In this document: one piece after another, positions 31,134 through 32,554 of the stretch
Numbering within the stretch: the stretch's first letter is position 1
How the letters are laid out: each line of letters starts with the position of its first letter
IMG/VR virus record: IMGVR_UViG_3300045988_154477
Reading direction: 5' to 3' (one strand)
From: a virus
Taxonomy: Duplodnaviria > Heunggongvirae > Uroviricota > Caudoviricetes
Length of the DNA stretch: 64,000 bases
Program-made: the position numbers and the translations under genes
The notes under the pieces: model-generated
Database searches by the model: none
Seen by the model: only the letters and a program-made list of their open reading frames with translations
What the model was told of the DNA's origin: nothing

Positions 31134-31598
31134 CAGGGTTTTCGTCATGGTTAGCGACTTTGCGGCGGTTTAGAAACTGACCATTAAAGTAAATGCAAAC
31201 GATGATCTGATGATGGTAGCGGCCTAAGAAGCCAGATGCCACGGGGTATGAGTCGTCCCCCGTCAAAAAATCGACCGCAGAGTGTCCCCGTCTGTGTATT
31301 AGGGAACGGGGAGGCACAACAGGTAAGGGCGCTGGTGTGATTAACCAGATGAACGAGAAGGGGCCATCTGTTGGCCAGCGTCCTTTCCTGTTGCGTTTTC
31401 TTTTCAGCGTAACAGCGGTGCTTAACAGCACTTTGGGTACAGTTCCACGAATTTACGGGTATATCCCGTCATGCTGAAAGCGCTAATCACGCTGGAAGCC
31501 AGGGTTGTGCATCCCCTGTTACCGAATTGCAGCCAGGGCGCGGTGCGCCGAAAAGCATACGGAGGTGGAAGCCCTCGCCGGAGACGTACCCGGCAAGT

Positions 31599-31674
31599 GA
31601 TGGTGTAGCTCAGCGGTTAGAGCGGTTGACTGTTAATCAACGGGTCGATGGTTCAAATCCATCCACCATCGCCA
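31599..31674 (+). tRNA. tRNA-Asn (GUU)
   Basis: Canonical cloverleaf folded by hand; anticodon loop CUGUUAA; CCA encoded. Confidence 0.85.
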
Positions 31675-31676
31675 AT

Positions 31677-31752
31677 GCCGGTTTAGCTCAGTTGGTAGAG
31701 CGCCTGCCTTGTAAGCAGGATGTCAGCGGTTCGAGTCCGTTAATCGGCACCA
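31677..31752 (+). tRNA. tRNA-Thr (UGU)
   Basis: Acceptor GCCGGTT/AATCGGC; anticodon loop CUUGUAA; CCA encoded. Confidence 0.85.
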
Positions 31753-31760
31753 GCACAACA

Positions 31761-32554
31761 GGTAAGGGTATTTTGCGACGTCGGAGATCGCCGAGCTTGG
31801 CAGAGGGTTCGAATCCCTACGAAGTACCCTTACCGTTGTGATGAATGCGCAGGCTGATGCGCGAAAGACATTGCAGCTATTGCGGAAAAGAGCTGTTCGG
31901 CGGGGCAATTAAACGCCCGTGAGAGTCTGAAATAACCGCAAGCCGGAGATCAGCACCGGTCATCACAACACAACAGGTAAGGGCATTCTCCCTTATGGGG
32001 CTTGGCTTAAATGCATCGAGTGCTCTTACCGTTGTGATGAAGTGCAGCTCTTTGAAGCAACCAGAAGATAAGCATCTGGCTTCACAACATAAACCGCAGG
32101 AACGACCAATAAACGGTAGTCCGTATGGAGAACACCCCGTTGAGGAAGAGGCCTGGCCGGAACCGTAACCGGCACTACAACGTTGAGAACACTGGCGTAA
32201 CGGGGTCATATCCCAATCTACGAATAAATGTTGCGTTGCAGCGTGACAACCAGTGTTCTCAACATTGTGGTGAATGCACAGGCTGATGTGCCGCAACTAC
32301 AGTAGTGCGCGCTTTGCGGGGCTTGCTACAACCCTGTGTCGGAGTTCAGCACCGACCATCACAGTTTGATTCTCTGGCATGAGCATAACGCTGAAATAAG
32401 TCCAGTCTGGTGCGGCCCGATCACCCGCCGTTAGCTCCACGAAACGGAGCACGTAACAGGTAAGAGCATTCTCCTGTAACGGGTTCATATCCCAATCTAC
32501 AGGTCCACCAGGAATGCTCTTTCCGTTGCGGTGAATGCGGCTAAGCGCACGCGG
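31761..32554 (+). repeat. four tandem hairpin-plus-box units (candidate small RNAs or decayed tRNA genes)
   Basis: Long hairpins each followed by box CCGTTGTGATGAATGCRCAGGCTGATG at 31833, 32029, 32264, 32523; unit 1 has tRNA-like T-arm GGTTCGAATCC. Confidence 0.5.

Follow-up and report, generated by a model that had tools for sequence, protein, structure and literature searches.

The leader of the ban operon

The stretch of DNA examined here (IMG/VR record IMGVR_UViG_3300045988_154477; 64,000 nt, hereafter the window) comes from a P1-like phage (Punavirus), and the subject of this report is an array of structured elements that lies, together with the genes for tRNA-Asn and tRNA-Thr, between the C1-controlled promoters of ban (Pban) and tciA. 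The array is built from five long hairpins (A0-A4) and four domains closed by a long-range helix (B1-B4). The region is probably the untranslated, structured and processed polycistronic leader of the C1-repressed ban operon, in which RNase III stems would punctuate a transcript of tRNAs, small RNAs (sRNAs) and mRNA, with end-closing B domains following them. The 1.8 kb around the array is 99.6% identical to JL22 and, over 91% of its length, 99.3% identical to phage P1. The gene order was read from the P1 record mapped onto the window, from the list of open reading frames (ORFs) and from ARAGORN, which reports no tRNAs in the window other than those for Asn, Thr and Met(CAU). That the region holds no convincing ORF, as stated in the initial annotation, is a fair description, although the P1 record nonetheless annotates the minus-strand genes plp and upl. 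The genes and signals that frame the array are the following (MFE, minimum free energy structure):

30925: 3' end of dmt (P1 annotation, mapped)
~30900-30945: ban promoters and operators, C1-controlled, Pban (P1 annotation, mapped)
30946-31133, + strand: Pban-proximal short RNA, including the 'dicF-like region' of P1, in the same leader and outside the array (P1 annotation, terminator scan)
31103-31133: strong intrinsic terminator, ~190 nt past Pban (terminator scan)
31241-31264 and 31287-31312, + strand: two small hairpins, ACGGGG...CCCCGT and CCCCGT...ACGGGG (sequence, MFE)
31570-31598, + strand: small hairpin GCCGGAGACGTACCCGGCA, directly 5' of tRNA-Asn, resembling the terminal hairpin of a B domain
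31599-31674, + strand: tRNA-Asn(GUU) (ARAGORN, Rfam)
31677-31752, + strand: tRNA-Thr(UGU) (ARAGORN, Rfam)
32680-33105, + strand: tciA, the first protein gene past the array, followed by tciB and tciC (ORF list, P1 annotation)
33380-33455: tRNA(CAU), after tciC (ARAGORN, gene order)
33736: start of ban (P1 annotation, mapped)

The two small hairpins at 31241-31312 had been proposed to compete for the same ACGGGG and CCCCGT segments; both exist, and both form together in the MFE, competition being possible and not required. The hairpin at 31570-31598 is a direct repeat with 32629-32641. No promoter-like site is found on either strand of 30850-33800, against 2.7 expected. Scanned with Rfam in gathering mode, the whole window yields tRNAs, sok and C4 only, and E-value mode adds a sub-threshold STnc100 and otherwise microRNA-type noise on the hairpins.

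Long hairpins with a conserved closing stem

The five long hairpins lie on the + strand within 31314-32648, their free energies ranging from -33 to -49 kcal/mol and their z-scores from -5.3 to -7.1; fold significance was assessed from z-scores and 200 shuffles per element, and for each hairpin none of the 200 folds as well.

31314-31396, + strand: A0, 19-nt arms, no box after it (inverted repeat; dG -42.3, z -5.3)
31753-31840, + strand: A1, starting right at the CCA end of tRNA-Thr (dG -40.5, z -5.6)
31968-32036, + strand: A2 (dG -33, z -6.2)
32157-32172, + strand: small hairpin CCGGAACCGTAACCGG, then the A3 5' flank CACTACAAC (sequence)
32170-32275, + strand: A3, 23-nt arms, the hairpin itself at 32173-32272 (inverted repeat; dG -49.2, z -7.1)
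32434-32450, + strand: small hairpin GCTCCACGAAACGGAGC before A4, which also precedes the A hairpin in Klebsiella phage 5 LV-2017
32452-32533, + strand: A4 (dG -34.7, z -5.9)

The initial annotation had recognized four tandem units of hairpin plus box, with a 'partial copy' at 31317; the latter is in fact the complete hairpin A0, which lacks the box only. The 5' arm CAACAGGTAAGRG is present in four copies in the window, against 0.09 expected, and units 3 and 4 do share a loop segment of 25 nt at 96% identity (32197-32221, 32476-32500), as had been observed. Every A hairpin is preceded by a small hairpin and CAYNAAC, and the closing stem, of ~19-25 bp, follows the pattern C-A-A-C-(A)-R-R-N-A-G-A-G-C-A ... 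U-G-C-U-C-U-Y-N-Y-C-G-U-U-G. With 19-25 pairs and at most two interruptions, the closing stems of A0-A4 have the length of about two turns (~20 bp or more) of almost uninterrupted double-stranded RNA that is characteristic of RNase III stems.

Covariation was measured on 20 A stems, all different, that were taken from P1-like and lambdoid phages and from IMG/VR contigs; MAFFT misplaced a one-nucleotide bulge in them, so the stem statistics were taken from a custom script, and closed hairpins were enumerated. Of the 14 positions that the CAAC/GTTG clamp encloses, 12.6 are paired between cognate arms and 10.3 when arms of different hairpins are combined, and none of 10,000 permutations reaches the cognate value, a result that overstates independence since the sequences are related. 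The stem is realized in distinct solutions, such as GAGAGCA/TGCTCTC, GGGCG/CGCCC, GAGTT/AACTC, GAACA/TGTTC and GCGCA/TGCGC, and the homolog of A2 in Klebsiella phage 5 LV-2017 has compensatory stem changes. The closing stem of A is conserved by covariation and its interior is freely exchangeable; the compensatory changes across related phages that the initial annotation had put forward as a check are present.

The A stems contain 21 G.U against 6 A.C combinations, as befits + strand RNA and not DNA hairpins. In agreement with this strand, the fold of 31750-32680 reaches a z-score of -6.6 on the + strand and -4.4 on the minus strand, and every A hairpin gains 6-10 kcal/mol in stability when folded as + strand rather than minus-strand RNA. 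That the repeats act as DNA, as palindromes resembling miniature inverted-repeat transposable elements, as cruciforms or as recombination sites, is therefore very improbable: modules are gained and lost at the repeats and the CACAAC/GTTGTG junction is palindromic, but both the G.U excess and the greater stability of every hairpin on the + strand speak for RNA, the conservation of stems around unrelated interiors is the opposite of what such transposable elements display, and the insertions and deletions are explained by homologous recombination between repeats.

The same region has been annotated on the other strand in P1, where plp (a putative lipoprotein) and upl are both listed with predicted promoters; upl is also among the up-regulated P1vir genes in one RNA-seq study (PMC8201110). 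If these were the products of the region, the hairpins would be incidental, an explanation that deserves hardly any credence. The start codon of Plp is TTG, and its C-terminal end runs antisense to tRNA-Thr; in the window and in JL22, a single ORF spans only residues 1-93 of 125, and residues 86-125 match a separate ORF of 61 amino acids, Ro157c2YLVW keeps only the first 41 residues and SJ46 lacks the first 29. There is no match to Upl in P7, D6 or SJ46, and across the window, JL22, P7, D6, SJ46 and Ro157c2YLVW the two frames are truncated, frame-shifted or absent. Plp moreover resembles an ORF on the + strand, with 41% identity, which is an artefact of the palindrome; in the gene table of the RefSeq plasmids, which is incomplete, most rows show no gene beneath the match, and neither strand has a promoter-like site. 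As judged from these comparisons, plp and upl are unlikely to be real genes.

The box as one strand of a long-range helix

The box core RTTGYGRTGAA occurs in four copies in the 64 kb, at 31835, 32031, 32264 and 32525, all on the + strand, against 0.4 expected. The four boxes of the initial annotation are hence confirmed in their core, but the full 30-nt box is well kept in units 1 and 3 only (82% identity), units 2 and 4 keeping the first 14-18 nt only (62% over 34 nt). The box forms the 5' half of the helix that closes a B domain; in this helix, GUUGYGRUG pairs with CAYCRCAAC 60-130 nt downstream, and this partner is always found directly 3' of a small terminal hairpin (CCGG-loop-CCGG). The recognition of the box as half of a long-range helix, and of the units as cassettes shared with lambdoid prophages, extends the initial annotation. 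The MFE layouts of B1-B4 are alike: past the 5' strand of the closing helix, three bases stay unpaired before a small 5' hairpin, and a variable middle leads to the terminal hairpin.

31835-31969, + strand: B1, closed by GTTGTGATGA/TCATCACAAC (MFE)
32031-32088, + strand: B2, short, GTTGTGA..AAG/CTTCACAAC (MFE, z only -1.1)
32264-32365, + strand: B3, closed by ATTGTGGTG/CATCACAGT (MFE, z -0.8)
32525-32648, + strand: B4, closed by GTTGCGGTG/CACCGCAAC, immediately 5' of the tciA ribosome-binding site (MFE, z -3.95)

In B1, the 5' hairpin is GCGCAGGCTGATGCGC and the terminal hairpin CCGGAGATCAGCACCGG; the domain is 97-98.6% identical to a segment of lambdoid and Shiga toxin (Stx) phages and is missing from phage P1. 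The closing helix varies in a compensatory manner at three positions (GTTGTGGTG/CACCACAAC, GTTGCGGTG/CACCGCAAC, GTTGTGATG/CATCACAAC and ATTGCGGTG/CACCGCAAT).

The order of the elements in the leader is tRNA-Thr, A1 B1 A2 B2 - A3 B3 - A4 B4, tciA, and the same junction is reused at every A hairpin, where the A stem opens with ...CACAAC(A)GG and ends with CCGUUGUG..., which at the same time starts the next B. As a consequence of this reuse, the 5' and 3' ends of a B RNA excised from between neighbouring A stems would be complementary. The terminator scan finds no terminator-like site after any B domain.

Relationship of the B domains to STnc100 and PasD

The segment 32527-32646, which is B4, matches the Rfam family STnc100 (RF02076) with 39.2 bits (E 1.5e-6), below the gathering score of 47; the covariance-model scan suggested along with the initial annotation thus gives a sub-threshold match for this unit. 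In the architecture of STnc100, the 5' strand ..UGGUGAAU is followed by a small hairpin, then by a middle part that varies and by the terminal hairpin CACCGGGAGGCACCCGG, after which the 3' strand closes the helix; this layout is reproduced both in the cmscan alignment of B4 and in the MFE folds of B1-B4. Among IMG/VR contigs, 27 were found by the box pattern, with an A hairpin directly 5' of the box wherever the upstream sequence suffices and with at least four unrelated types of A interior; two of the nine that were scanned with Rfam reach the STnc100 gathering score (54.8 and 47.7 bits).

STnc100 and PasD of enteropathogenic Escherichia coli (EPEC) are reported to descend from a common ancestor and to lie near Q, TerB-like and lysis genes (2026 preprint, bioRxiv 10.64898/2026.05.13.724894). 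PasD is abundant and Hfq-dependent, and PasD1 and PasD2 have many partners in RIL-seq (PMC8550237). PasD1 (NC_011601 1060260-1060432) begins exactly at its box CGCAUGGUGAAUCC, after a gene for a DUF3927 (TciB-like) protein. Like the B domains of the window, STnc100, PasD1 and PasD2 combine a 5' motif of GGUGAAU and a small hairpin with a long-range closing helix and a terminal hairpin CACCGGGAGGCACCCGG just before the 3' strand, and the neighbouring genes, TerB/TciA-like and DUF3927/TciB-like, are alike as well. Unlike these sRNAs, the B copies of the window score below threshold or not at all, have no promoter, seed tail or terminator of their own, and are chained in tandem within an operon leader. 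In EPEC E2348/69 (L240 762-1133), PasD1 is situated between the DUF3927 gene and a holin gene, and the minus-strand 'hypothetical protein' annotated over it is possibly a spurious ORF on a structured RNA.

These relatives raise the possibility, which overlaps with the reading of the region as a processed leader, that the modules mainly work in trans: the B domains, and possibly also the released apices of the A hairpins, would be sRNAs or sponges that are bound by Hfq or ProQ and target host or phage transcripts once the ban operon is derepressed, processing being no more than their mode of production. The nearest relatives of B are indeed real sRNAs, PasD1 and PasD2 being abundant and Hfq-dependent (PMC8550237), STnc100 is an Rfam sRNA family located near Q, TerB-like and lysis genes in prophages, and DicF, the neighbour of the B domain in the Qin prophage described below, is an sRNA that acts in trans and is processed out of a transcript of this kind. 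On the other hand, the seed and terminator of PasD1 lie 3' of its B domain, and B1-B3 have neither such a tail nor a U-tract terminator nor an Rfam match; with no promoter-like site in the region and no terminator-like site after the B domains, they do not have the makings of independent sRNA genes in the style of STnc100. Trans-action as the main role is accordingly possible though not favoured. The suggestion in the initial annotation that the units are processed small RNAs is plausible in so far as the box starts a domain related to STnc100 and the Hfq-dependent PasD.

Exchange of modules among phages

When the window is compared with P1, P7, D6, SJ46 and Ro157c2YLVW, the differences concern whole modules, with breakpoints within the repeats. 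P1 lacks 31846-32018, that is B1 and the 5' part of A2. Ro157c2YLVW lacks A1-B1 and has an extra tRNA-Tyr (L003 1979-2065) between Asn and Thr as well as a 160-bp insert, and P7 and D6 have, in place of the distal part, a further B and an A hairpin of another kind, with a tRNA-Ser(UGA) lying between the B 3' end and the last A hairpin (L004 2607-2693, L005 2802-2888). Real tRNAs come and go inside the same array in D6, P7 and Ro157c2YLVW. Parts of the array are matched by 925 plasmid records of PLSDB, which show a graded mosaic coverage from 100% down to 4%.

Outside the P1 group, A/B modules have been located in three positions: after a pL-like promoter downstream of cI (mEp460, Stx2a_WGPS2); in Klebsiella phage 5 LV-2017, downstream of Q, a terminator and tRNA-Thr, with a gene for a TciA-like protein following (the likeness to TciA being judged by eye); and in the spacer between ydfC and dicB of Qin, a prophage carried by E. 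coli K-12. The modules are exchanged as cassettes among phages and are common to lambdoid prophages, where their A/B order recurs in early-left and in late leaders. The sequence ACGGGCTCATAACCCAATC is found on long hairpins of prophages.

An A-type hairpin and the RNase III site of Qin dicBF

From ydfC to dicB, Qin contains in succession an A-type hairpin, a stretch homologous to the 'dicF-like region' of P1, DicF with its terminator, a B domain and dicB. The hairpin (L038 19173-19259, NC_000913.3 1649172-1649258; TAAC-G-CG-A-AAGCGCA.../...TGCGCTT-CCG-GTTGTGG) shares the closing-stem pattern and the GTTGTGG 3' flank with the A hairpins of the window, and the B domain before dicB scores 34.1 bits to STnc100. 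It has been shown that a 190-nt DicF species of dicBF is lost without RNase III, which confirms Faubladier et al. 1990, and that this species has as its 5' end a cut by RNase III, as mapped by primer extension (Ragunathan et al. 2023, PMC10448788). A length of 190 nt, measured upstream from the 3' end of DicF (L038 19435-19440), leads to 19246-19251, which is inside the 3' arm of the Qin hairpin, ACCGUGCG-CUUCC-GGUUGUGG, and the sequence of Fig. S1 in the same paper (PMC10448788) spans this arm. By this arithmetic, which predicts the position of the cut, the A-type hairpin is an RNase III substrate in the homologous Qin operon, and the A hairpins of the window are kin to a hairpin with a mapped cut. 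Among the functions that the initial annotation had offered for the units, processing signals are for this reason the best supported.

The Qin dicBF operon is, like the ban operon, a repressor-controlled prophage early operon with the same module grammar, and the apex of its hairpin, UUCAUAG, is close to the UUCAUAU of A4. It differs in having one A and one B, whereas the window has five A and four B arrayed with tRNAs. The Qin hairpin appears in published work without being described as a member of a family. The kinship extends to the Pban-proximal RNA (30946-31133), of which ~100 nt are ~80% identical to the 5' portion of the 190-nt precursor of DicF in Qin; DicF itself (RF00039) has no Rfam match in the window, against 76.7 bits for Qin DicF, and only the region upstream of DicF is shared. 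The Pban RNA carries a different 3' hairpin and terminator where DicF sits, and looks like a DicF-position sRNA with a new 'business end'. In Qin, the B domain (L038 19440-19600) starts right after the DicF terminator, and its 18-bp closing helix, GAAUUUUGUGAUGUGGUG/CACUGCAUCACAAAAUUC, is long enough for a second RNase III site that could set DicF 3' ends in read-through transcripts.

Long stems that flank a cargo RNA, with RNase III separating the products and tRNAs embedded in the same precursor, are well known from the stalks of rRNA operons and, as RNase III sites, from T7 and lambda. The A array resembles these systems in its flanking stems around cargo within one long transcript; it is unlike them in that no sequence kinship exists, the cargo is small and variable, and the reused junction gives neighbouring products complementary ends. 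The RNase III hairpin of the lambda N leader has no similarity by eye, and a motif scan finds no A/B motifs in it.

Comparison with antitermination elements

The strong terminator ~190 nt after Pban invites the alternative that the elements protect transcription of the leader, passively by denying the loading of Rho, or actively as put-like or nut-like (boxA/boxB) antitermination sites with which RNA polymerase would read past the terminators of these leaders. In a nut site, a boxA that is single-stranded and conserved in sequence precedes a boxB hairpin, to which an N protein binds. The elements follow Pban as well as pL-like and Q/pR'-like promoters, a terminator stands in lambdoid contigs between the STnc100-type unit and the next long hairpin, and the 3' arms UGCUCUUUCC or UGCUCUUACC resemble boxA and are followed by a small hairpin. 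The consensus of boxA is UGCUCUUUAACAA in rrn and CGCUCUUA in lambda. The boxA-like stretch of the A hairpins, UGCUCUU(U/A)CC, is nevertheless buried in the 3' arm of the stem, base-paired and covarying, and it varies with compensating changes (GCUCUCCC, GCUCUUUU, GUUCUCUC, GCGCUUCC), which fits a helix better than a NusB/NusE site. Furthermore, the one strong terminator lies upstream of all copies in P1, an N-like gene was not seen, and the lambda N leader is devoid of A/B motifs.

The put RNAs are ~70 nt long, with two stem-loops, and lie at most ~270 nt downstream of an early promoter and upstream of the terminators that they suppress (PMC9378689); the modules of the window, by comparison, are 60-135 nt, repeated, 370-1700 nt from Pban and past the terminator. 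In the stretch of HK022 that was examined, from a poorly annotated record, there are no A/B motifs beyond one weak arm-like match, the put sequence itself not having been compared. A role in antitermination or against Rho is on these grounds quite improbable, and the reading of the box as boxA/boxB was dropped, the boxA-like stretch being paired and covarying.

Proposed processing of the leader

If the region is a processed leader, as we consider probable, lifting of C1 repression would let Pban make a short terminated RNA and, by read-through, a long leader transcript with tRNA-Asn and tRNA-Thr. RNase III would cut the stems of A0-A4, and these cuts would free the 3' side of tRNA-Thr, separating the tRNAs from the downstream RNA, and would release the apical hairpins of A and the B RNAs with pairing ends, some of which may act in trans. 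The tciABC-tRNA-ban mRNA would be left with a base-paired B4 at its 5' end, and should thereby resist 5'-end-dependent attack by RNase E.

Several observations weigh against this interpretation, in addition to the relatedness of the stems in the covariation set and the sub-threshold score of B4. The independent compensatory events in the B helix number only about three, and the folds of B1-B3 are not exceptional (z -0.8 to -1.6) and Rfam gives no match to them with E values of 10 or less. For Qin, the position of the RNase III site follows from length arithmetic and was not read from the mapped nucleotide in Fig. S1, and the Qin hairpin is a diverged relative of the P1 hairpins and not an ortholog, cleavage being demonstrated for Qin only. 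In SJ46 (L006 ~2560-2660), a deletion between the 25-nt loop repeats joins the A3 5' arm to the A4 3' arm and creates a mismatched chimeric hairpin, from which it follows that at least one hairpin, or the A3-A4 module pair, is dispensable in that phage. Finally, no transcript, end-mapping or cleavage data for P1 were found in the literature searched, where one paper on RNA-seq of P1vir gives gene-level changes only.

RNase III processing stems, the sRNAs STnc100 and PasD and the cut in Qin (since 1990) were already known. No description was found, in Rfam 15 or in the literature searched, of the A hairpin as a covarying family with exchangeable interiors, of its fixed coupling to an STnc100-type domain, of the tandem A/B array with tRNAs in P1-like phages or of the initiator-anticodon-like apex presented below. 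P1 serves as a reference phage, and the group of phage-plasmids of which it is the prototype is very common; parts of the array are carried by 925 plasmid records. Should the proposed processing be correct, the ban leader would be a processed polycistronic non-coding array, and plp and upl would be artefacts of structured RNA. The RNase III site of DicF in K-12, the STnc100/PasD sRNAs of pathogenic E. coli and Salmonella and the tRNA region of P1, three parts so far treated separately, would then belong to one modular toolkit that is horizontally exchanged among temperate enterobacterial phages, and a testable rule would be available for where such sRNAs start and end.

tRNA-like pieces and an anticodon-arm-like apex

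Unit 1 had been described as a tRNA-like core. Its interior, which contains AGGGUUCGAAUCCCU, does include a perfect, canonical T-arm (AGGGTTCGAATCCCT, 31804-31818), one further small hairpin and a D-arm-like GCCGAGC..GGC; ARAGORN, on the other hand, makes no call, and the best match in the Rfam tRNA clan over the unit is tRNA-Sec with 14.6 bits (E 1.2, cut-off 47), while mascRNA scores a non-significant 14.9 bits. T-arm-like pieces are present in the interiors of other A hairpins (GGTTCGACTCC, GGTTCAATTCC, CCGTTCGATTCGG, GGUUCGACUCC, GGUUCAAUUCC, CCGUUCGAUUCGG). The tips of A3 and A4 resemble the anticodon arm of initiator tRNA (GGG-NUCAUAN-CCC):

32200-32218, + strand: A3 apex ACGGG-GUCAUAU-CCC-AAUC, CAU at 32207-32209
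32479-32497, + strand: A4 apex ACGGG-UUCAUAU-CCC-AAUC, CAU at 32486-32488

The small hairpin ACGGG-UAUAU-CCCGU at 31457-31471, 5' of tRNA-Asn, is like the ACGGG...CCC apex of A3 and A4, with a loop of 5 nt and no CAU.

Such pieces could be the debris of tRNA genes from a former cassette array, whose residual structure would have no function of its own; the decayed tRNA genes of the initial annotation amount to the same proposal. It has on its side the T-arm, the D-arm-like segment and the weak matches of A1 to mascRNA and tRNA-Sec, the T-arm-like pieces elsewhere, the CAU-bearing apex of A3 and A4, and the real tRNAs in the arrays of relatives (tRNA-Ser(UGA) in D6 and P7, tRNA-Tyr in Ro157c2YLVW). 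The proposal is nonetheless doubtful. ARAGORN and the tRNA models remain silent or far under the cut-off, locus L008 has no tRNA-clan match in Rfam, the conserved and covarying feature is the non-tRNA closing stem, across at least 19 types of hairpin, and the apex is kept in more than 100 distinct contexts, unlike neutral debris.

The apex pattern ACGGGNTCATANCCCAATC is present in at least 120 IMG/VR contigs and in ~25 species-representative genomes, all of them Enterobacterales (Escherichia, Shigella, Citrobacter, Enterobacter, Kosakonia, Yersinia, Erwinia, Edwardsiella and others); ~20 further matches in other phyla, none of them a tRNA, were set aside, their number being about that expected by chance (~17 by arithmetic). 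In lambdoid contigs, the apex caps a stem of 25-28 bp that starts in the U-tract of the preceding terminator and ends GUGGAGAAAC, and these hairpins (L008 3180-3300; L039-L194; at least 120 contigs) lie just before the first early-left gene. The apex sits there on a three-way junction with a covarying inner stem, in which five of the eight pairs have double changes; RNAalifold on mixed subfamilies recovers the inner stem and the apex only. The commonest lambdoid apex, CGGGCUCAUAACCC, shares a stretch of 14 identical nt with the anticodon arm of metY, the E. coli initiator tRNA-fMet.

With the loop left free in the search, CUCAUAA, CUCAUUC, CUCAUUA, CCCAUAA and UUCAUAA were retrieved, in addition to GUCAUAU and UUCAUAU of the P1 type, so that four positions of the loop vary and the central CAU is invariant; with only about six events, an invariant CAU has a chance probability of ~3-4% by arithmetic. 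The P1-type apices have in common with tRNA-fMet (metY) the GGG/CCC pairs, the 7-nt loop and the central CAU. Unlike in metY, only three stem pairs are common, C28-G42 and U27-A43 not being among them, and the rest of the apex-bearing RNA is not a tRNA; unlike a canonical anticodon loop, some variants have C at position 33 or U at position 37.

The likeness of the apex to the initiator anticodon, seen at the level of sequence, is to be taken as a lead and not as a finding. The array thereby points to an undescribed, widely conserved hairpin with a tip like the anticodon arm of initiator tRNA. We regard it as improbable that this apex, which units 3 and 4 have in common with the long leader hairpins of at least 100 prophage contigs from Enterobacterales, functions as a mimic of that anticodon arm, carried on a stem releasable by RNase III and acting as a decoy or sensor. 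Candidate readers of such a mimic would be an anticodon-loop nuclease such as enteric VapC, methionyl-tRNA synthetase (MetRS) or the P site of the 30S subunit; enteric VapC toxins cleave tRNA-fMet. If it existed, the mimic would link phage early transcription to the control of, or defence around, translation initiation.

Other RNA elements

Type III antitoxin repeats, a retron and integron attC sites were dropped as identities for the array, there being no toxin gene, reverse transcriptase or integrase and the core site being wrong, and HnrS (PMC13502914) is unrelated. Elsewhere in the window, at 11770-11975 and 15426-15600, Rfam places the C4 antisense RNA with its a1/b1 targets and the sok antitoxin RNA, as expected for an immI region of the P1 type and a hok/sok-like module. 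C4 antisense RNA and isrK are also found beside an antirepressor-type region in three scanned lambdoid A/B loci (upstream regions of L007, L008 and L019), and the C4 module next to the lambdoid A/B loci is thus another module that they have in common with P1.

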